A stretch of DNA of 64,000 nt from a virus (Duplodnaviria; Caudoviricetes): the IMG/VR virus record IMGVR_UViG_2721755587_000001; one strand, given 5' to 3'. Under the pieces are notes generated by a model. That model did no database searches. It was not told the DNA's origin and saw nothing but the letters and a program-made list of their open reading frames with translations. This document shows positions 9,403 through 56,522 of the stretch, piece by piece (positions within the stretch are counted from its first letter, which is position 1; every line of letters begins with the position of its first letter). The position numbers and the translations under genes were made by a program.

Positions 9403-10177
9403 AGAGATGAAGCCCGGTGCGCAGGCACTGACCGTTGCCAGATGGACCGGATCGGTCTCCCAGCACGCCAATGGCGGGTTTGTCGCGGTCAGCGACTACA
9501 TGGCGTTGGCGAGCGAGCATGACAGCTGGAAGCGCATGTACGAGGACGCCGTCCGCAGCCTAGCTTGCATTGATCAGGCTCTGGGCATCCCGGCTGACGA
9601 GGCGGGCGGTGCCGCGCCGATCCTGGCGGAAATCGAGCGCCTGAAGGAAGGAGCGAAGGTGGCCGGAGTTGATGCCAAGCACGAGGCCCTGGAGCTCACT
9701 GCGCGCTCCATTGCTCACGGCAACGCGAATGAGTGGGCTGCCCAAGATGGAAAGGTCGGTTCTCTGATCGAAAGCGAGTTCTACCCGTTCATCGAAACGG
9801 ACGTTGCCGCCTACACCGGCGATGATGCTGACGATGAGCGCTTGCGCGCTTACCTCGCGGCAGCCAACCCAAACACTGTCTTGGAGCTCTTCGATTGCGT
9901 TCGCGCGGTCCGGGCTAGTGCTCAGGCCACGGTCGCGCGCCCGCTGATGGATGCGAAGTACGGAAACGAGGGATATCACCCGTTCGCGGTTGCATCCATG
10001 CCGAAGCTGGGGCTGACGGACGATTTCGCGGGAGACAACGTGCACTTGGTTCGATGCATTGAGGCCCTGATTTCGCTTGATGCGAACGGCAGTTTAGTGC
10101 CGCACGGCATAGGCTGCCATGCGCGCACGCTGCTATCCGCATCGGCAGTACGGCTCGCCCGGCAGGAGCGCGCATGA
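9395..10177 (+). CDS. Ead/Ea22-like mosaic protein
   Basis: AYLAAANPNTVLELFD. Confidence 0.6.
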   Translation: MNEEMKPGAQALTVARWTGSVSQHANGGFVAVSDYMALASEHDSWKRMYEDAVRSLACIDQALGIPADEAGGAAPILAEIERLKEGAKVAGVDAKHEALELTARSIAHGNANEWAAQDGKVGSLIESEFYPFIETDVAAYTGDDADDERLRAYLAAANPNTVLELFDCVRAVRASAQATVARPLMDAKYGNEGYHPFAVASMPKLGLTDDFAGDNVHLVRCIEALISLDANGSLVPHGIGCHARTLLSASAVRLARQERA

Positions 10178-11970
10178 TCCACCGCGAATACAAGACGTTC
10201 GGCTTCTGCTGCGGCCTGGGCGGCGGGGCCAAGGGCTTCAAGAAGGCTGCTTCCCAGGTGGGCAACATGATCGCGACCTGGCGCTGCATCGGCGGCATCG
10301 ACGTCGACCCGGCAGCGGCGCGCGACTTCGAGCACCTCGTTGGCGTGCCGTGCACAGTGATGGACCTGTTCACCCGGGCGATGTACACCGCCTTCCACGG
10401 CAAAGAGCCGCCGGCGGGCTGGCGCGAGGCCACGGCCGCCGACGTTCGGCGTGCCGCCGGCAACGAGACGCCCGACTGCGTGTTCATCTCGTCGCCCTGT
10501 AAGGGCGCGTCCGGTCTGCTGTCCGAGGCGCTCAGCCGCACACCGAAGTACCAAGCTCTGAACGAGCTGACCCTGCGCTGCGTGTGGCTGATGTGCGAGG
10601 CTTGGAAAGACAAGCCCGTCAAGCTGATCGTCTTCGAGAACGTGCCGCGACTGGCCACGCGCGGGCGGCACTTGTTGGACCAGATCAACCAGATCCTGCG
10701 CCACTACGGCTATGCTGTGAATGAGACTACGCATGACTGCGGCCAGATCGGCAAGCTGGCCCAAAGCCGCAAGCGCTTCCTGATGGTTGCCCGGCACATG
10801 GAGCAGGTCCCGGCCTTCCTCTACGAGCCTGAGATTCATCGCCTGCAGGGCGTCGGTACCGTGCTGGGCCGCATGCCGCTGCCTGGCGATCCGGCCGGCG
10901 GACCGATGCACCGCGTGCCGTCGCTGCAGTGGAAGACCTGGGTGCGGCTGGCGTTTGTTGAGGCCGGTAGCGACTGGCGGAGCCTGAACAAGCTGGCGGT
11001 GGAGAACGGCCACCTCAGCGATTACCTGATCGTGCCCGAATATCGCGACGGCTACATGGGGGTGAATCGATGGGACGAGCCCAGCGGGACCGTCGCTGGT
11101 CGTAGTGGGCCGACGAACGGCACGTTCAGCGTTGCGGATCCCCGTTTCGCCAAAAGCGCGAAATGGAATGACGGCCATGCCTACGGCGTGCTGCCGTGGG
11201 ACCAGCATACGAACACCATCGCTGCGCAGCAGATGCCAGGCCAGGGCTACTACACCGTCGCGGACCCGCGTCACGCTGGCCCGGCCAAGCACAATAACGA
11301 GTTCCGGATCGTGCCGTGGGGCCACGCCGCCGGCGCAGTAACCGGCGCCCACGGCACCGGCCAGTGCGTGCAGGACCCGCGCGCGTCGACCGGCTTCGAG
11401 GGCGCGGGCAAGTACCGCATCACCGGATTCGACGAGCCGGCCGGCACGGTCATCGCTCGCAGCGATACCGGCCAGGGCGCTTATGCCGTGGCGGATCCCC
11501 GCCCGGGCATGCGGCGCGAGCGCGGCGACCACTACCTGACCGGTGGCCACTATGGCGTGGTGGGCTGGGAACAGCCGAGCGGTGCGGTGTCTGCTGCTGC
11601 TGGCCACGACAACGGCCGGTGGTCTGTGGCGGACCCGCGCCTGCCTGCGGCGAACGACAAGCTGATTGCGATCATCCGCGCGCTGGACGGTACCTGGCAC
11701 CGCCCTTTCACTACGTTTGAACTGGCCTGCCTGCAGTCGCTTGTTGAGCCCGAGGAATATCTCGAGTTGGACGGGCTGAGCGATCAGGCCTGGCGCGAGC
11801 GCATCGGCAACGCTGTGCCGCCGGACGCCGCGTGCGCGATCGCCGAGGTGATGGGCACCACCCTGCTACTGGCCGAGACCGGCGAGACGTTCATGCTGTC
11901 GGCCATGCCGGTGTGGGTCCAGCCCGTGGCCGTGGCGCTGTCGGTGGCGCAGCCTGCGGAGGTCTCATGA
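10174..11970 (+). CDS. DNA cytosine-5 methyltransferase with internal repeats
   Basis: motif I FCCGLGG, IV SSPCKG, VI FENV, VIII QSRKR, X IGNAVPP. Confidence 0.9.
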   Translation: MIHREYKTFGFCCGLGGGAKGFKKAASQVGNMIATWRCIGGIDVDPAAARDFEHLVGVPCTVMDLFTRAMYTAFHGKEPPAGWREATAADVRRAAGNETPDCVFISSPCKGASGLLSEALSRTPKYQALNELTLRCVWLMCEAWKDKPVKLIVFENVPRLATRGRHLLDQINQILRHYGYAVNETTHDCGQIGKLAQSRKRFLMVARHMEQVPAFLYEPEIHRLQGVGTVLGRMPLPGDPAGGPMHRVPSLQWKTWVRLAFVEAGSDWRSLNKLAVENGHLSDYLIVPEYRDGYMGVNRWDEPSGTVAGRSGPTNGTFSVADPRFAKSAKWNDGHAYGVLPWDQHTNTIAAQQMPGQGYYTVADPRHAGPAKHNNEFRIVPWGHAAGAVTGAHGTGQCVQDPRASTGFEGAGKYRITGFDEPAGTVIARSDTGQGAYAVADPRPGMRRERGDHYLTGGHYGVVGWEQPSGAVSAAAGHDNGRWSVADPRLPAANDKLIAIIRALDGTWHRPFTTFELACLQSLVEPEEYLELDGLSDQAWRERIGNAVPPDAACAIAEVMGTTLLLAETGETFMLSAMPVWVQPVAVALSVAQPAEVS

Positions 11971-12608
11971 TGGGTAGTCAAAAGCTCTTGAATCAGGGCT
12001 GGTTGGACCACAGCCCCGTCCGCAAGCCCCGCGCCGGCCATATCGGTGAACAGGTCTTTGCGGAGCGGTGGCGCGAGTTGATGGCGAGCGTTCCCCTGCA
12101 TGGAGAGGGCCATCCCAACGAGATGCTCGAGACGATCCTGCGCAATTACCACAAGGACCAAGTCGATCAACGCGATGCTACTGTGGCTGCAACGGTGGTC
12201 TGCTGGCTTGGCTGCAATTGCGGTCGGGCTATCCTGTACATCGCGAAGCGATTGAAAGAGCTCGGGGCTGGACCCGAGTCATACCTGTATGCCTGGGCAG
12301 GAGAAAACCGGAGGTCTTTGGGGATCAATCGTGGCTACAGGACGATCGAATACATGCTTGCCCCTGACGACCACTTTGGGCGGCAATGGCCACATGAATC
12401 AGAGTTGAGCCTGGTTCGTCGCCCGGAAATTTCAGTCAATGACCTTGAGGTCGCGGAGCACCTCTTTGCCTGGTTCAGGACTGGCGACGGGGAGGCATGG
12501 ATCGCAGAGTCTGAGCGGGAAGTAGACCGCCGCCAGGCGGAGGCCTACAGGCTCGGGCACGACAAGTGGCGCGCAGAAGCTGTTTGCCTAGGACCACTAG
12601 CCGAGTAA
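11967..12608 (+). CDS. phage hypothetical protein
   Basis: ATGA overlap; QRDATVAATVVCWLGCNCG. Confidence 0.65.
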   Translation: MMGSQKLLNQGWLDHSPVRKPRAGHIGEQVFAERWRELMASVPLHGEGHPNEMLETILRNYHKDQVDQRDATVAATVVCWLGCNCGRAILYIAKRLKELGAGPESYLYAWAGENRRSLGINRGYRTIEYMLAPDDHFGRQWPHESELSLVRRPEISVNDLEVAEHLFAWFRTGDGEAWIAESEREVDRRQAEAYRLGHDKWRAEAVCLGPLAE

Positions 12609-12616
12609 AGTTTTTG

Positions 12617-12644
12617 TTGAAAAATATGCATACATGGCTATACT
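12617..12644 (+). promoter_or_regulatory. sigma70 promoter with operator-like site, driving the structured RNA region
   Basis: TTGAAA-16-TATACT; ATGCATACATGGCTA 12626-12640. Confidence 0.7.
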
Positions 12645-12649
12645 TAGGC

Positions 12650-14630
12650 CAATACGAATTCTGCTTCGTTGGTGAAGGCCTCCTCGGCCGTGGGGCACCG
12701 CCGAACTGCAGGAAGATTGGCCGGTCGTAAGCGGCCCCGAGCAATCCACCGTATTGCACATGCGGCCCGCGCAAGCGGGGAGTCAAACGTCCGTCTCCTA
12801 CGGCAGCCCGAAAGGACAGGGTAATGTGCAGTGTCCTTGATAGTCGGCCGCGCCGCCGTGCATCGAAACGCCGGCGCGGCCAGTCTGTCACCAATCTCGG
12901 TAAGCACATTCAGCGAGTGCGCTTACCGAGACTGGATGGTGACCCTTCAAGACGGTCTCTTTAAATGTCTACCAAGGGCGCAGTGGTTCGCTTGAGACAC
13001 GAACCCGACTGGCCGGCGTAACCGGCTACAGAATGCACCCCGAGAGGGCCGCGCTGCAGCAGTACGCAGCAATCCGAATGACTGCCGTGGTGGGTGGTCG
13101 CTAGGTAGGTCCGACACAAGACTCAGCTAGCGCACCTCTCGCTTGCTGGCGCGGCTGACAGCGAAAAGTCGGCCACCTGTTGCAAGATGGCTCCGCCGCA
13201 GGAGTCTGACGCATCGCCGGACGAGAGTACCCGGCTGGAATTCCTGATCGCCACCAGTAGCCGGGTCGCCACCGGCGAAGGAGAAGAGGTGGCAGCGAGA
13301 CGGTAGCGTGCGGGGCGCAAGGCCCAATCCGTGACTAGCCGGGGAGAGTACCGGCATCTTCAAGCGTGCGGCTGCCCCGAGCGGGGTATCCCGCGATTCC
13401 AGGCCACACACCTATGTGCGGCCGCACACTTGAGGGTGAGAACACGTAGCGCGTGAATGGACTGGTCCTCCGCGCGGCAGATAGAGAACCGCGACGAGCC
13501 GGAGTAGCGACCGGCCACCTTCAGCTTTCAAGTGAGCGTCCTGCTGTCCAGTGGGCGCGGCCAGAGATGGCGACAAGAGGTGGTAGCGCACCTCAGCAGC
13601 TAAAACGCAAATGAGCGATCCGGTGGGCCTTTGGCCACATGACTCCGGTAGCAGGGTTGGCACGCATAGCCTCCCTGCCTTGTTCCCGAATTGGCGACAG
13701 GTGCTCAGGGCGTTCACTTGATGGCATGCATGCGAATGCACCTTTCAGACAGGTATAGATTGGACTCTTGGCCTGGCAGTCGGTGGAAGCCCGACCCTTC
13801 ATGCATCACCATCTCGGGGTCACGGGGTTGTAGCCGGACCTTAAACGACGGTCTGACCCGCGCCGGTGTGGTGATGCATGAGGGAATGCGCGGGCTGACG
13901 CGCGGCGGATGGAAGCGAACCGGCGGCGACGAATGTCCTGGGCCGTACCACGTAAGTGAGCAAAGCGGCGAATACAAAAAATCACCGCGTCCCTGTGCCG
14001 GGATCAGCGCCGGCCCCTCAGCCGCAAGCCCGGAGGCGGCGCGCAAGCGAAAAACACACGGGACGGATTAGCAGAGTGCGGGCGGACCGAAATGCCGTCG
14101 CTGGAATCGTAACCAGCACCTTCATGGATGTCTGTTTTCAGAGAAGTGACTCGCCCAAATATCATTGGGAAGGAGAACGTAACGTCCAGGGACATCCATG
14201 AGGGGCCACCTAGTCGTCAGCCCGTGGGCCGAGCAGGCAGGTGATATGCGGTGATCCGCGCCCTCTACTGTATGCGGGCTTGGCCGAGTGGTCAGGCAGC
14301 GGCCTTCCAAGCCGCCAACGCCGGTTCGAATCCGGCAGCCCGCTCCAAGAAACCTACCGCACAATAGGGCGGATGCTGGAACCCGTAACCAGCTCTTTCA
14401 TGCATGGCGATTGCCAAAGGGCCAGCGAAAGCAGCCGCCGACCGCCCGGCAATAGGTGGCGGCAGTCGTCATGCCTGAAAGTGAAGCGGGGATGCGAGCC
14501 CCGTATCAGGACACTCCTCTGTCGAAAGCCAAAAATGCCGCCACTTGCCAGGCGGAAGGCGCGAGCTGGGAGCAAGAGAAACCTGCATGGACTTTGCGTG
14601 CCGCCGGGGTAGCGTCCGGCCACTTTCTTC
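12650..14630 (+). ncRNA. candidate polycistronic structured ncRNA array
   Basis: no credible ORF; chained 15-21 bp stems, repeated GCCGG-loop-CCGGC hairpins, GNRA tetraloops, embedded tRNA. Confidence 0.65.
14274..14347 (+). tRNA. tRNA-Gly (anticodon TCC)
   Basis: acceptor GCGGGCT/AGCCCGC, anticodon arm GCGGC-CTTCCAA-GCCGC, T arm GCCGG-TTCGAAT-CCGGC, T discriminator, encoded CCA. Confidence 0.95.
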
Positions 14631-14654
14631 AATTTCGACAACGGGACGAAACGA

Positions 14655-14810
14655 ATGGCATACCTGCTCTTGTTGGTGGTGCTCTGCTTCTGGCGTTTTC
14701 CCGTGACGCCGGCGCTGTCGGGGGCTGGATCGCCCGCCTGGCGGAGTCAGCCAAGCCCACAGCCTACTCCACGCCTGGGTGCCAGGGCATGGAAAACGGA
14801 GTGGGGTTAG
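14655..14810 (+). CDS. possible 51-aa peptide with hydrophobic N-terminus
   Basis: MAYLLLLVVLCFWRFP...; weak RBS; precedes the terminator. Confidence 0.3.
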   Translation: MAYLLLLVVLCFWRFPVTPALSGAGSPAWRSQPSPQPTPRLGARAWKTEWG

Positions 14811-14849
14811 TGGCAGCACCATGACGACTTCAACACGGGAATGTTGACG

Positions 14850-14879
14850 AAACCCGGCTTCGGCCGGGTTTGTCTTTTC
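14850..14879 (+). terminator. intrinsic terminator
   Basis: AAACCCGGC-TTCG-GCCGGGTTT then T-rich. Confidence 0.85.
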
Positions 14880-14902: not shown

Positions 14903-15595
14903 CTAGATCTTGTCGAAGCTAGCCATCAGCATGAGCCGGCCCGCGGTGTCAGGGTGCCACGCTTGTACCAGCTCCTTGTGCCGCATCCCAGGCTCGGCGT
15001 ACAGGATTCTCACCGCGACAATTCCGACGTGGTAGGACCAATAGGCGAATGTGCACCTGCCATCGACGTCGTTTCCATTCACTTCTGTCCAGCCCGCGAC
15101 CCTAGTACCCGGCTCGTGGGACGGTGTTGGACCGATGGCAATGAAGACGTGCGGATGCGCCGTTCGAGTAAGAAAAGCACTCGCAAACGGGCGGAGATCG
15201 ATTGGAACCTTGTGTTCGGCGATTAGACAGCCGAAAAGCTTCACGAAATAGAGGTGGGTATCAAGCAAAGCATCCTCCACCGGTTGCTTGAATACTTCAG
15301 CCATCTCAATTGAGTCCCCCGGTCGGATAGATGGTCGACTTCTCAGATCGCCAGACAATTGCTCCCATGCTTTGTCATACGGCTGGCTGAGATTGTTGTT
15401 GCAGTCCGCGCATAGAAGAGCCTTCGACTTGAAGGCCGGATCCATCACTGTGCGTTTTGGGACGTTGCGCGCCTTACTCGAGTGAACATAAAGAAGCTTG
15501 TTCTGAGAAACGTGCCCAAACAACCCCCTCAGATCGGAGACCTTCATCAGGTGCTCTCCCGTCTCGGCAGCTTTCCCGCAGATCCAGCAATCCAT
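14903..15595 (-). CDS. HNH-like nuclease domain protein (moron)
   Basis: CWICG...TGEH...CADCNN; GGAGG RBS; opposite strand to neighbours. Confidence 0.7.
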   Translation of the reverse strand: MDCWICGKAAETGEHLMKVSDLRGLFGHVSQNKLLYVHSSKARNVPKRTVMDPAFKSKALLCADCNNNLSQPYDKAWEQLSGDLRSRPSIRPGDSIEMAEVFKQPVEDALLDTHLYFVKLFGCLIAEHKVPIDLRPFASAFLTRTAHPHVFIAIGPTPSHEPGTRVAGWTEVNGNDVDGRCTFAYWSYHVGIVAVRILYAEPGMRHKELVQAWHPDTAGRLMLMASFDKI

Positions 15596-54704: not shown

Positions 54705-55016
54705 TTGGACAACCAGGACACCAAGCCTCAGAAGATCATCGACGCCAAGCTGCCGTTGTCATGGCTTATTTCGTCCACGGTCGCAGTGATTGCCTTCTTG
54801 GCTAGCGCGCTTTGGGCCGTGTTCAACCAGTCGGCAAAATTGGACATCCTGATCACCCAGACTACGAAGCTCGAGCGGCGTATGGATGACCGGGATGCCC
54901 GTATCGACAACGTGATCCGGGACATCTACGACCAGAAGCGGGTCAATGACCTGCAGGATCTGCGTATTGGGCAACTTGAGGGCCGGCACTCTACCGGCGA
55001 CAGGAGTACAAAATGA
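54705..55016 (+). CDS. single-TM coiled-coil lysis protein (holin/antiholin-like)
   Basis: GGAG RBS, one TM segment. Confidence 0.6.
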   Translation: MDNQDTKPQKIIDAKLPLSWLISSTVAVIAFLASALWAVFNQSAKLDILITQTTKLERRMDDRDARIDNVIRDIYDQKRVNDLQDLRIGQLEGRHSTGDRSTK

Positions 55017-55336
55017 TGGGTTTGCTTTGGCGGGTTCTCCCGCGCGTTGTCTGGTCGGCGGCTCTCACGATCGTGGCCTTTCTTGCATTCCAGCCCCTCA
55101 CAATGCTGACCGGTGTGCCCGAGGTCGCGCGTGTCTTGCCGGCGCTGGCGGTGCTCTACTGGATCGAACTGTCGCTCTTCCTCGCACGCGTCATCTTCAG
55201 TCCGGATATCGATCACCAGGCCATCGCGCGCAAAGCGGCCGAGGAGTCAAGCGGCGCGGCCATGGTCTTCGCTGTGCAGACGTTCTCCGTCATGTTCCGA
55301 GTGGGCATCCTGGTATGGATCATCTTCGCGCTGTGA
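55013..55336 (+). CDS. holin, three TM segments
   Basis: hydrophobic, directly upstream of the endolysin. Confidence 0.7.
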   Translation: MMGLLWRVLPRVVWSAALTIVAFLAFQPLTMLTGVPEVARVLPALAVLYWIELSLFLARVIFSPDIDHQAIARKAAEESSGAAMVFAVQTFSVMFRVGILVWIIFAL

Positions 55337-56004
55337 TGCCTCGGGTTCTTCTGGCCTTGGCGCTGCTATTTGGGGTGCAGGCACAGGCCCAGAAGCTTCC
55401 CGGGGATGCGGATCGCTATCTGCCCACACTCAAAGGTGAGATCGCGCGTTACTGGCCGGACCTGCAGCCTCGCGCTTGGCCACCGGCTCTGATCGAGCAG
55501 GAGAGCAATTGGAAGCTGCGGGCCACGCTGCGGACGTCGCGTGAGCTCGGCTGCGGGCTCGGGCAGTTCACGAAGGCACTCAACTCGGACGGCTCGGTCC
55601 GGTTTGATGCGCTGGCGGAGACGCGCCGCCTGGATCGCTCTCTGGCCGGCTGGTCCTGGTCGGATTGCTACAACGCCGAGTACCAGCTGCGTGGCGTGAT
55701 TCTCAAGCTCAAGGCTAACGAGCGGCAGTGTGCGGCGTGGATGCGTGGAAATCGTGAGGTTAAGGCCTGTAACGCTGCCAGCTACAACGGCGGCGGTGGG
55801 TCAGTCCTCAAACGCATCAATACGTGCAAGGCCACGTCAGGCTGTGAATCGCACCTGTGGTTCGGGCATCTGGAACGCTTGTGCCCTCAGTCACAGAAGA
55901 AGGCAGCCCAGTACGGCGAGTCATTCTGTGAGATCAACAGTCGCTACCCGGGCAGGGTGGAGGCGCGCATGCCGAAGTACGTCGGCCCTATGGAGCGTCC
56001 ATGA
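55336..56004 (+). CDS. endolysin, SLT-type lytic transglycosylase with signal peptide
   Basis: IEQESNW, GLGQF, ASYNGG; MPRVLLALALLFGVQAQA. Confidence 0.85.
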   Translation: MPRVLLALALLFGVQAQAQKLPGDADRYLPTLKGEIARYWPDLQPRAWPPALIEQESNWKLRATLRTSRELGCGLGQFTKALNSDGSVRFDALAETRRLDRSLAGWSWSDCYNAEYQLRGVILKLKANERQCAAWMRGNREVKACNAASYNGGGGSVLKRINTCKATSGCESHLWFGHLERLCPQSQKKAAQYGESFCEINSRYPGRVEARMPKYVGPMERP

Positions 56005-56522
56005 ACGTGCTTGGCTATGTCATTCCGGGTTGGGCGCGGGCGCTCTTCATCGTTGCGGCGCTGCTGGCGGTCTACGTGCTCGGGCGTCTGGATGGCGAGA
56101 GGATCCAGGGCGCAGAACATGCCGACTATGTCGCCAAGCAAGCCACGACGGCGGTGAAGGTGGTCGAAGCCCAGACCAAGGTAGTCACGGTAACTGAGAC
56201 GAAATGGCGAGACCGAATTGTGACGGTCCGGGCCAAGGGCGATACGATCATCAAGGAGGTCCCGAAGTATGTTACGCCGAGCGACGATTCTGCTTGCACT
56301 GTCAATGCTGGCTTCGTGCGGTCATACCACGCCGCCTGGGCAGGTGAGCCTGCCGGACCTCCCGCCGATTCTGACCGAGAACCCTCCGGAGTTCCGCTCT
56401 CTGAAGTCGCAGAAGCCGATGCCTTCAACGCCTCAGTCGCAAGGCAATGGCGCGAGCAGGCCTTAGGGCTGCGTGACTTCTACGTGAACCTGCAGAAAGC
56501 CAGGGAAGAGGCTGCCAAATAG
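56001..56522 (+). CDS. i-spanin (Rz-like)
   Basis: N-terminal TM; TIIKEVPKYVT...C.V..GFVR. Confidence 0.8.
   Translation: MNVLGYVIPGWARALFIVAALLAVYVLGRLDGERIQGAEHADYVAKQATTAVKVVEAQTKVVTVTETKWRDRIVTVRAKGDTIIKEVPKYVTPSDDSACTVNAGFVRSYHAAWAGEPAGPPADSDREPSGVPLSEVAEADAFNASVARQWREQALGLRDFYVNLQKAREEAAK
56269..56466 (+). CDS. o-spanin lipoprotein (Rz1-like), embedded in the +1 frame
   Basis: lipobox LASC, Pro-rich. Confidence 0.75.
   Translation: MLRRATILLALSMLASCGHTTPPGQVSLPDLPPILTENPPEFRSLKSQKPMPSTPQSQGNGASRP

Follow-up and report, generated by a model that had tools for sequence, protein, structure and literature searches.

The stable RNAs "species 1" and "species 2" of phage T4 are made from a tRNA-cluster transcript. 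Processing stems of RNase III are found in the leader-trailer helices of 16S and 23S rRNA and in the R sites of the phage T7 early RNA, and the attC sites of integrons carry the cores R''/R' (RYYYAAC/GTTRRRY). In YrlA, a long stem closes a molecule with a tRNA-like domain, which is a substrate of RNase P and the CCA-adding enzyme, and one criterion of the family is that a Ro60 (TROVE) gene lies on the same strand at a distance of at most about 4 kb (Chen et al. 2014, PMC4201824). Structured small RNAs (sRNAs) of E. coli prophages, PasA-D and STnc100, are clustered with tRNA genes and horizontally exchanged (10.64898/2026.05.13.724894). Here we analysed a stretch of 64,000 nucleotides of phage DNA (Caudoviricetes; IMG/VR record IMGVR_UViG_2721755587_000001), referred to as the window, and within it positions 12645-14871. 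The prophage, of about 60% G+C, resides in a host genome of 8.4 Mb (two contigs, 100% complete). We conclude, with high confidence in the anatomy and the family taken jointly, that positions 12645-14871 of this temperate Burkholderiales phage form a single non-coding transcription unit on the plus strand, a modular RNA array associated with tRNA. Judged from sequence, the array is a member of a widespread RNA family in Burkholderiales phages, absent from Rfam and from the literature searched.

Ends and coding status of the unit

The unit is bounded by a promoter-like site and a terminator that faces a convergent gene.

12617-12644, plus strand: sigma-70-like promoter, TTGAAA-16 nt-TATACT, with 10 of 12 consensus matches
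14850-14871, plus strand: intrinsic terminator, a 9-bp stem with 6 G-C pairs and a T-run

The codon-position GC periodicity (maximum minus minimum) was 0.00-0.13 across 12450-14400, compared with mostly 0.17-0.46 in the flanking genes. Many open reading frames (ORFs) were listed mechanically between the promoter and the terminator; they carried no coding signature, with one weak exception at 14655-14810. The proposal of the first-pass annotation that this is a non-coding unit is therefore supported by the periodicity of at most 0.13, by a promoter-like site at one end and a terminator at the other, and by the tRNA on the same strand. Two other parts of that proposal were not confirmed. The "operator" at the promoter was reduced to an 8-bp palindrome within the promoter spacer, and the "early" timing was not borne out; in many relatives, the array sits just upstream of the terminase genes, at the start of the late or packaging module. 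The segment 12645-14871 was single-copy in its own genome, except for a 67-nt match to a chromosomal tRNA, and a loose scan of that genome for stem plus hairpin returned mostly noise.

Clamps and connectors

The central part of the unit consisted of two kinds of modules. The clamp is a long stem whose base, (C)CYUCA on the 5' side, is paired with UGARGG on the 3' side, and which encloses a variable cargo. The connector is a tRNA-sized, cloverleaf-like domain composed of P0 (acceptor-like), Pa (D-arm-like), a variable arm, and Pb (T-arm-like). A covariance model of the connector, R1, was built from the relatives and scored on the window.

13338-13438, plus strand: unit A, hairpin 13338-13355 and clamp A with arms 13355-13375/13418-13438 (repeat finder, fold, read-out of the sequence)
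13432-13522, plus strand: connector A, P0 GAGGGUG (13432-13438)/CACCUUC (13516-13522), Pb 13498-13515 (R1 11.3 bits, E = 0.06, full-length match 13433-13524)
13524-13725, plus strand: clamp B, arms 13524-13543/13706-13725, cargo of about 160 nt (repeat finder, fold, read-out)
13719-13801, plus strand: connector B, divergent, P0 UGAUGG/CCUUCA with one mismatch, Pb 13779-13795 (R1 8.4 bits, E = 0.34, weak, match 13719-13804)
13796-13884, plus strand: clamp C, arms 13796-13811/13869-13884 (repeat finder, 94% complementary)
13879-14023, plus strand: connector C, canonical, P0 UGAGGG (13879-13884)/CCCUCA (14015-14020), Pa 13888-13903, Pb 13997-14014 (R1 56.9 bits, E = 6e-14)
14100-14204, plus strand: unit D, hairpin 14100-14117 and clamp D with arms 14119-14132/14191-14204 (inverted repeat of 93%, direct repeat, fold, read-out)
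14200-14265, plus strand: putative short connector D, GAGGG (14200-14204)/CCCUC (14261-14265), from read-out and with no R1 match; tRNA-Gly within 8 nt downstream
14274-14347, plus strand: tRNA-Gly, anticodon UCC (ARAGORN; Rfam 66.4 bits)
14375-14481, plus strand: unit E, hairpin 14375-14393 (loop AACCCGUAA) and clamp E with arms 14395-14415/14461-14481 (fold, read-out)
14477-14627, plus strand: connector E, divergent, P0 GAAAGUG/CACUUUC (14621-14627), Pa 14487-14503, Pb 14603-14620 (R1 6.6 bits, E = 1, weak, match 14478-14629)

Five long stems, each preceded by a 5-bp hairpin, had been described from the letters of the sequence, and both observations were reproduced. Four of the stems were recovered by a repeat finder and all five in an unconstrained fold, the fifth (14395-14415/14461-14481) by the fold and not by the repeat finder, and the arm sequences were checked by read-out, as were the hairpins at 13338-13355, 13498-13515, 13779-13795, 14100-14117, and 14375-14393. 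The window thus contains five clamps with a CCYUCA/UGARGG base, a variable cargo, and a 5-bp hairpin just 5' of the stem. The clamp helices were 14-25 bp long and the cargos, which change fast, 40-160 nt. In the window, the arms of 14-21 nt form about two helical turns around the cargo, which is the helix expected of an RNase III processing stem. Clamp A contained two U.G wobbles that are compatible with the plus strand only. The cargo of clamp B (13547-13715) had 67% identity in genome G116, and clamp C was 84% identical to Ralstonia phage p2110, with one compensatory change of C-G to U-A.

Each connector begins with the clamp's own UGARGG(UG) strand. Helix P0 arises when this strand pairs with a (CA)CCYUCA located further downstream. 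The domain enclosed by P0 is about 80-200 nt long, and the smallest connectors, of 79-84 nt, have the size of a tRNA. The canonical motifs within the domain are GCGCR GGCUGA YGCGC for Pa and GCCGG, a loop ending in CAGCR, and CCGGC for Pb. Pb adjoins the 3' strand of P0, as the T-arm adjoins the acceptor stem in tRNA. In the window, the R1 matches of the three weak connectors A, B, and E were full-length and showed the same architecture. Their P0 strands and those of connector C covary with one another, and by read-out connector E differs from connector A by compensatory changes.

Via the shared strand, the two kinds of modules are interlocked, since UGARGG is able to pair upstream in the clamp or downstream in P0 in units A, B, C, and E, and more weakly in unit D. 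The two alternative helices, the clamp base and P0, were near-isoenergetic, with a median difference of 1.7 kcal/mol (range -4.7 to +8.0). The first-pass annotation had expected one conserved scaffold with variable inserts. Conserved scaffold and variable inserts were both borne out, but the scaffold is not single, being composed of clamp and tRNA-like connector with the UGARGG strand in common. The small hairpin before stems B and C is the Pb of the preceding connector, and that before stem A looks like a Pb as well. Stems D and E are instead preceded by a free-standing, Pb-like hairpin, and in the relatives L077, L079, and L051 a true tRNA can occupy the place of the pre-clamp hairpin.

Relatives in other phages

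The comparison set comprised about 70 related phage and prophage loci (L numbers). Searches of phage records with blastn gave short matches only, located on the tRNA or in non-coding DNA of Ralstonia phage p2110 (L001) and the Burkholderia phages Mica and BcepIL02, and the matched regions of these three phages showed the same design on reading. Two conserved patterns from the phage comparisons were used to scan viral and genome collections. The hairpin and stem start of unit E had exact-pattern relatives in six viral contigs of IMG/VR, mostly of Bcep22-like phages, upstream of a conserved ORF annotated as ssb in BcepIL02. The hairpin carried a compensatory change of C-G to U-A, and one of the six contigs, of 90 kb, carried at least eight modules in a 2-kb array with a terminator at its end. 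The connector core (25-27 nt, from the sequence immediately 3' of clamp C and the next hairpin) was present in 56 IMG/VR contigs and 12 genome contigs, the named ones among the latter being mostly Pandoraea, Cupriavidus, and Burkholderiaceae metagenome-assembled genomes. Among 150 sampled other genomes of the same order, a strong copy was found in two, and such sporadic occurrence is the pattern expected of a phage-borne element. A 20-nt pattern from the cargo of clamp C matched one viral contig, in a coding region only, and was rejected as a chance match.

The arrangement of the window was kept in the relatives, where the complementary 5' clamp arm was present in 56 of 59 distinct related contexts. 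Whole clamp modules there measured 54-227 nt, with a stem extent of 15-36 positions, and among close relatives the cargos turned over quickly while the scaffold stayed fixed. Promoter-like AT-rich sequence also precedes the arrays of p2110 and L036. In L042-L107, genes for the small or large terminase subunit or for the portal often follow on the same strand, 0.7-3 kb downstream of the connector, and the commonest downstream genes were terminases of several unrelated families. Clustering of the neighbouring ORFs revealed no conserved protein partner, the top family occurring in 10 of 70 loci.

Some loci showed further features. In L036 (4400-4470), L081, L086, L089, and L105 (3300-3340), a CU-rich tail (GUCUCCUC...) and then a terminator come after the last connector. 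L105 gave a near-threshold match to the int-alpA RNA (32.9 vs 35.8 bits). In the GenBank annotation of p2110 (L001 2484-3595; record 54947-56058), two "hypothetical protein" genes on the minus strand cover the plus-strand array and its connector, and these two ORFs are probably miscalls.

Comparison with Rfam 15 left only tRNAs above threshold in the window and 24 related loci, with no family for any window module and the tRNA alone covered, in agreement with the initial impression that the unit lies outside the named families. Weak matches to the rnk leader, istR, and rsmX in the window and to Bp1_781 in L036 were rejected as terminator matches. The core motifs were not found printed in the literature searched, and the genome paper on a Bcep22-like phage mentions a serine tRNA only.

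Evidence for selection on plus-strand RNA structure

Pairing in the connectors was found to be conserved beyond the sequence itself. RNAalifold on 28 connector sequences recovered P0, Pa, and Pb. In an alignment of 60 distinct connectors, which was fitted to the model and in which much of the P0 signal comes from two sub-types, 98.9% of the cells were in standard pairs as against 91.0% in shuffles, and none of 500 shuffles reached 98.9%. Changes on both sides were seen in 8 of the 16 connector pairs, and the pairing fell to 33-51% when the partner was slid by 1-3 columns. A UG insertion after UGAGGG in P0 was always matched by CA or CG before CCCUC. At the variable pair of Pa, where the search pattern would have accepted four combinations including mismatches, only A-U and G-C occurred. 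Homologous modules in other phages thus covary, which is what the comparison of relatives had been proposed to check.

The clamps pointed to the same strand as the other signals. In clamp arms located by Watson-Crick matches alone, the ratio of G.U to A.C was 97:12 (37:12 outside the ascertained base). This excess favours plus-strand RNA, since a feature of double-stranded DNA would be symmetric, and the favoured strand is that of the tRNAs, the promoter-like site, and the terminator. In addition to the helices, the loop of Pa (GCUGA) is complementary to the loop of Pb (UCAGC), so that a kissing contact resembling the tRNA elbow may form.

Link to tRNA

The tRNA-Gly noticed within the unit at the outset is a real one according to both ARAGORN and Rfam. 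Genes for tRNA on the same strand were present in about 22 of 60 related loci, several of them directly after a connector and often of the Gly(UCC) or Met(CAU) type. The Gly(UCC) type also stands right after connectors in L095 (770-860), L077, and L083. As for its own sequence, the phage tRNA-Gly(UCC) is closer to a chromosomal tRNA with the anticodon GCA (Cys), at 81% identity, than to typical tRNA-Gly.

Certain modules of the relatives are themselves similar to tRNA. The clamp cargos of L090 (40.9 bits) and L084 (33.3 bits) exceeded the Rfam tRNA threshold of 29 bits, and the clamp there continues the acceptor stem. In one connector of L105, a canonical GGUUCGAUUCC T-arm is found in place of Pb. 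With these cargos and this T-arm the family looks tRNA-derived, and tRNA genes appear to be at least part of its ancestry.

Proposed processing and function

The explanation that we prefer joins the anatomy to processing by the host tRNA machinery and to a proposed role, and as a whole we regard it as reasonably probable. A long transcript would be matured by the host tRNA-processing machinery, with RNase P making the 5' cuts at P0 and at the tRNA, 3' trimming coming next, and RNase III possibly acting on the clamps. Whether the clamp base or P0 forms would probably be decided by folding order or cleavage. The tRNA-like connectors would serve as punctuation and as protective ends, and several stable small RNAs would be released. 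On tRNA, RNase P measures the geometry of the acceptor stem stacked on the T-arm, an arrangement that a P0 of 6-8 bp stacked on a 5-bp Pb reproduces. In connectors of the sub-type that lacks the UG insertion, ACC and then A or U often come after P0. The stacking geometry of P0 on Pb, the ACC after P0, and the precedent of YrlA make cutting by host tRNA enzymes the course thought most likely. Cleavage by RNase III or RNase P, as suggested at first, may accordingly be read as a proposal of the same kind, and we put the chances of processing into several stable RNAs at about even.

The fast turnover of the cargos with a fixed scaffold, together with the travel of the array with phage tRNAs, fits, as a guess, a phage-host conflict over tRNA-handling factors. 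Our best guess prefers baits or decoys to antisense guides, although the specific claim that the released RNAs are baits or decoys for host tRNA-binding or tRNA-cutting factors is put forward only tentatively and carries a low probability. The same low probability attaches to a fuller version, a tRNA-punctuated RNA expression platform, in which connectors would recruit RNase P and 3' trimming enzymes so as to excise a set of clamped RNAs, hypervariable cargos of these RNAs would bait host tRNA-directed immunity or enzymes, and the switch between clamp and P0 would order the processing.

Other functions were considered for single motifs. Hammerhead and other self-cleaving ribozymes were rejected, as the CUGAUG in Pa is without the essential following A and none was found in Rfam. 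Mimicry of the 16S 3' end, a CsrA sponge (GGA motifs), and nut/boxB or put sites were dropped because specific support was lacking.

Several observations weigh against the array as we describe it. Only one of the five window connectors is strong, since A, B, and E scored 6.6-11.3 bits and D had no model match. The folding z-scores, from -1.1 to -3.9 in the unit as compared with -0.9 to +1.1 in three coding controls, were modest and did not separate the strands; in G+C-rich DNA such values mean that thermodynamics alone proves little, and the comparison with related loci is the real support. The Rfam tRNA model (RF00005) matched no clamp or connector of the window at E up to 10, and ARAGORN at relaxed thresholds gave only noise on both strands of the window, so that the tRNA-likeness of these modules rests on their topology and on the relatives. 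A T-loop-like motif was found in only 6 of 56 cargos. The loops of the variable arm were mostly 4-6 nt, with no enrichment of 7 nt, and did not resemble anticodon loops, so that decoys for anticodon nucleases become less likely. The contact between Pa and Pb we infer only, because both loops are nearly invariant and a single covarying example, L078, changes both. Transcription of 12645-14871 and every cleavage step are likewise inferred.

Alternative explanations

A set of trans-acting, base-pairing sRNAs, like PasA-D, STnc100, and AgvB/AsxR of E. coli prophages, with the stems as scaffolds for stabilisation or processing only, survives best among the alternatives and is still considered unlikely. 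Clusters of prophage sRNAs adjacent to tRNAs are documented in E. coli (10.64898/2026.05.13.724894), a CU-rich tail with a terminator follows the last connector in 8 of 60 loci, and one tail, in L089, had a sub-threshold match to the Betaproteobacteria toxic sRNA (RF02278; 31.6 vs 50 bits). The window, however, has no CU-rich tail, and neither RF02278 nor STnc100/PasD (RF02076) nor another of the named sRNA families matched it. Complementarity spoke against such RNAs as well, and with them against the antisense guides of the first-pass annotation: all cargos and connectors searched against the 8.4-Mb genome, host and phage, by blastn-short gave only 15-18-nt chance matches in both orientations, with no antisense excess, seeds of 7-10 nt being beyond this test and not excluded by it.

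A decaying phage tRNA cluster, consisting of pseudo-tRNAs and spacer debris with only the tRNA-Gly live, is improbable. Such decay would agree with the plainly tRNA-derived cargos and connector in the relatives, with most cargos being mutually unrelated and not conserved, and with four of the five window connectors being weak or undetected by R1. It is difficult to reconcile with a connector core kept near letter for letter in 56 viral contigs with unrelated flanks, with helices maintained by compensatory and indel-coupled changes, with a G.U bias specific to one strand, and with arrays that have promoter-like sites and terminators of their own.

The near-isoenergetic competing helices also raise the idea of a cis-acting leader, which would control read-through by antitermination or by a riboswitch-like switch between clamp and P0. 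The position of the array 0.7-3 kb upstream of same-strand terminase or portal genes in a large share of the 70 loci, and a terminator-like site within 200 nt after 12 of 60 connectors, are in its favour. In the window, by contrast, the unit ends at a strong terminator facing a convergent gene. Connectors in general are succeeded by a mixture of elements (another clamp, a tRNA, an ORF, or a terminator), and the terminases downstream in the relatives come from several unrelated families. We hold a leader function to be slightly more doubtful than decay.

A feature of the DNA itself, namely attC-like recombination hairpins, single-strand initiation sites, or packaging signals, was judged very improbable. 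Inverted repeats with a conserved outer core and a variable interior do occur in attC, modules are shuffled between phages, and arrays are often near terminase genes. Yet the ratio of G.T to A.C (97:12) means that one strand is selected, all modules are oriented as the tRNAs, the promoter-like site, and the terminator are, and the connector folds as a closed cloverleaf with covariation. The core also differs from the attC consensus, and no recombinase or other conserved neighbour accompanies the arrays. As to integrases, no conserved adjacent protein emerged from the neighbour clustering, and no dedicated IntI search was run.

Y-RNA-type (YrlA-like) RNAs working with the Ro60/Rsr ring protein are largely refuted at this locus and barely credible, for although a long closing stem with tRNA-like cargo in the relatives resembles YrlA (PMC4201824), the complete host genome with its prophage gave no match to TROVE (PF05731), no Y-RNA-type Rfam family matched the window at E up to 10, and the Rsr-binding motif GNCGAA(N)G occurred at a chance rate (3 matches vs 2.1 expected), never on the 5' strand of a clamp. 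The DUF2828 profile (PF11443) had no match either, but it had none in any control genome, so that this result is uninformative.

The modular, tRNA-associated RNA array thus remains the reading that we prefer, and it bears on the annotation of phage genomes. Phage tRNA clusters are usually annotated as tRNAs with "empty" spacers. The window and the roughly 70 related loci show that in Burkholderiales phages these spacers have an RNA architecture that is conserved and covaries. With a covariance model of the connector, annotations such as the ORF calls over the array of p2110 could be corrected. If the arrays are processed into stable RNAs, they would represent a large unexplored class of phage RNA, likely tied to the contest of phage and host over tRNAs, and a natural precedent for tRNA-punctuated multiplex RNA expression.

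Other features of the locus

Structured elements were also present upstream of unit A and downstream of connector E.

12647-12831, plus strand: two 5' structured elements whose stems, at about 12647-12722 and 12752-12831, are separated by a short hairpin (minimum-energy fold)
12846-12978, plus strand: hairpins 12846-12881 and 12891-12935 and a mini-clamp 12943-12978 (CCCUU...AAGGG) (inverted repeats)
13012-13026, plus strand: 5-bp hairpin with a CGUAA loop (read-out); the same loop precedes clamps in L036 and Mica
13033-13235, plus strand: conserved structured element, about 200 nt in length and with a hairpin at its end (copies of 71-79% identity in three further genomes of this genus)
14628-14849, plus strand: 3' tail, a closing helix of about 13 bp (about 14675-14688/14810-14822) around three hairpins, overlapping a 51-aa ORF (minimum-energy fold)

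The further upstream stems that had been pointed out were seen by repeat finder and fold at about 12647-12722, 12752-12831, and 12891-12935, and the segment 12645-13035 had a folding z-score of -3.85. Positions 12916-12980 were 86% identical to non-coding DNA 3' of the integrase in Burkholderia phage Mica, with the mini-clamp in common, and positions 12902-13026 had 84% identity in genome G267. In the element 13033-13235, which had no Rfam match, 13 of 46 predicted pairs kept pairing through changes on both sides (RNAalifold, only four sequences).

The 51-aa ORF at 14655-14810 has a hydrophobic N-terminus and a weak GC3 signal (0.15-0.17). The DNA in which it lies overlaps a segment that folds strongly and has a 13-bp closing helix. 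It had no Pfam match, and its status as a coding gene is doubtful. The flanking genes at 14903-15595 (minus strand; 230 aa, CxxC motifs) and 11832-12608 (plus strand; 258 aa) belong to neither a Pfam nor a PHROG family. A large DNA methyltransferase (PHROG 116 and 32684) is encoded at 10174-11970, upstream of the array. Window positions 13288-13310 recur as a direct repeat of 23 nt (22 identical positions, E = 0.003) at C1:1480624-1480646 of the genome, about 150 bp before the window begins, perhaps by chance or as a further copy of a small element.

Comparison with known systems

The nearest known kinds are the RNAs of the T4 cluster, YrlA, the RNase III stems, and the E. coli sRNA clusters, and none of them is a sequence or model match to the array. 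The T4 species 1 and 2 RNAs resemble it as non-coding RNAs among phage tRNA genes on one transcript, whose release by host tRNA-processing enzymes would be expected here too, whereas there is no sequence relation between them and the window array. To our knowledge, there is no counterpart to the repeat of clamp and connector, to the UGARGG strand common to both, or to the conserved hairpins Pa and Pb.

YrlA shares the long closing stem and, with the relatives of the array, the tRNA-like cargo. It differs in that the window units stand in arrays of many interlocked copies, with no Ro60, Rsr motif, or Rfam match. The single base-pairing sRNAs of E. coli, PasA-D and STnc100, have known seeds and lack the clamp-connector architecture, and the window array in turn has no Rfam match.

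In RNase III processing stems, too, a cargo in a polycistronic transcript is enclosed by a long helix of its paired flanks. The CCYUCA/UGARGG base of the array is, in contrast, conserved and shared with a second helix, and cleavage by RNase III would be a presumed step here. With attC sites, the array has in common imperfect inverted repeats with a short conserved outer core and an interior of variable sequence and length, arranged in arrays. Its cores, however, are CCYUCA/UGARGG, and the evidence points to RNA, not to recombination.

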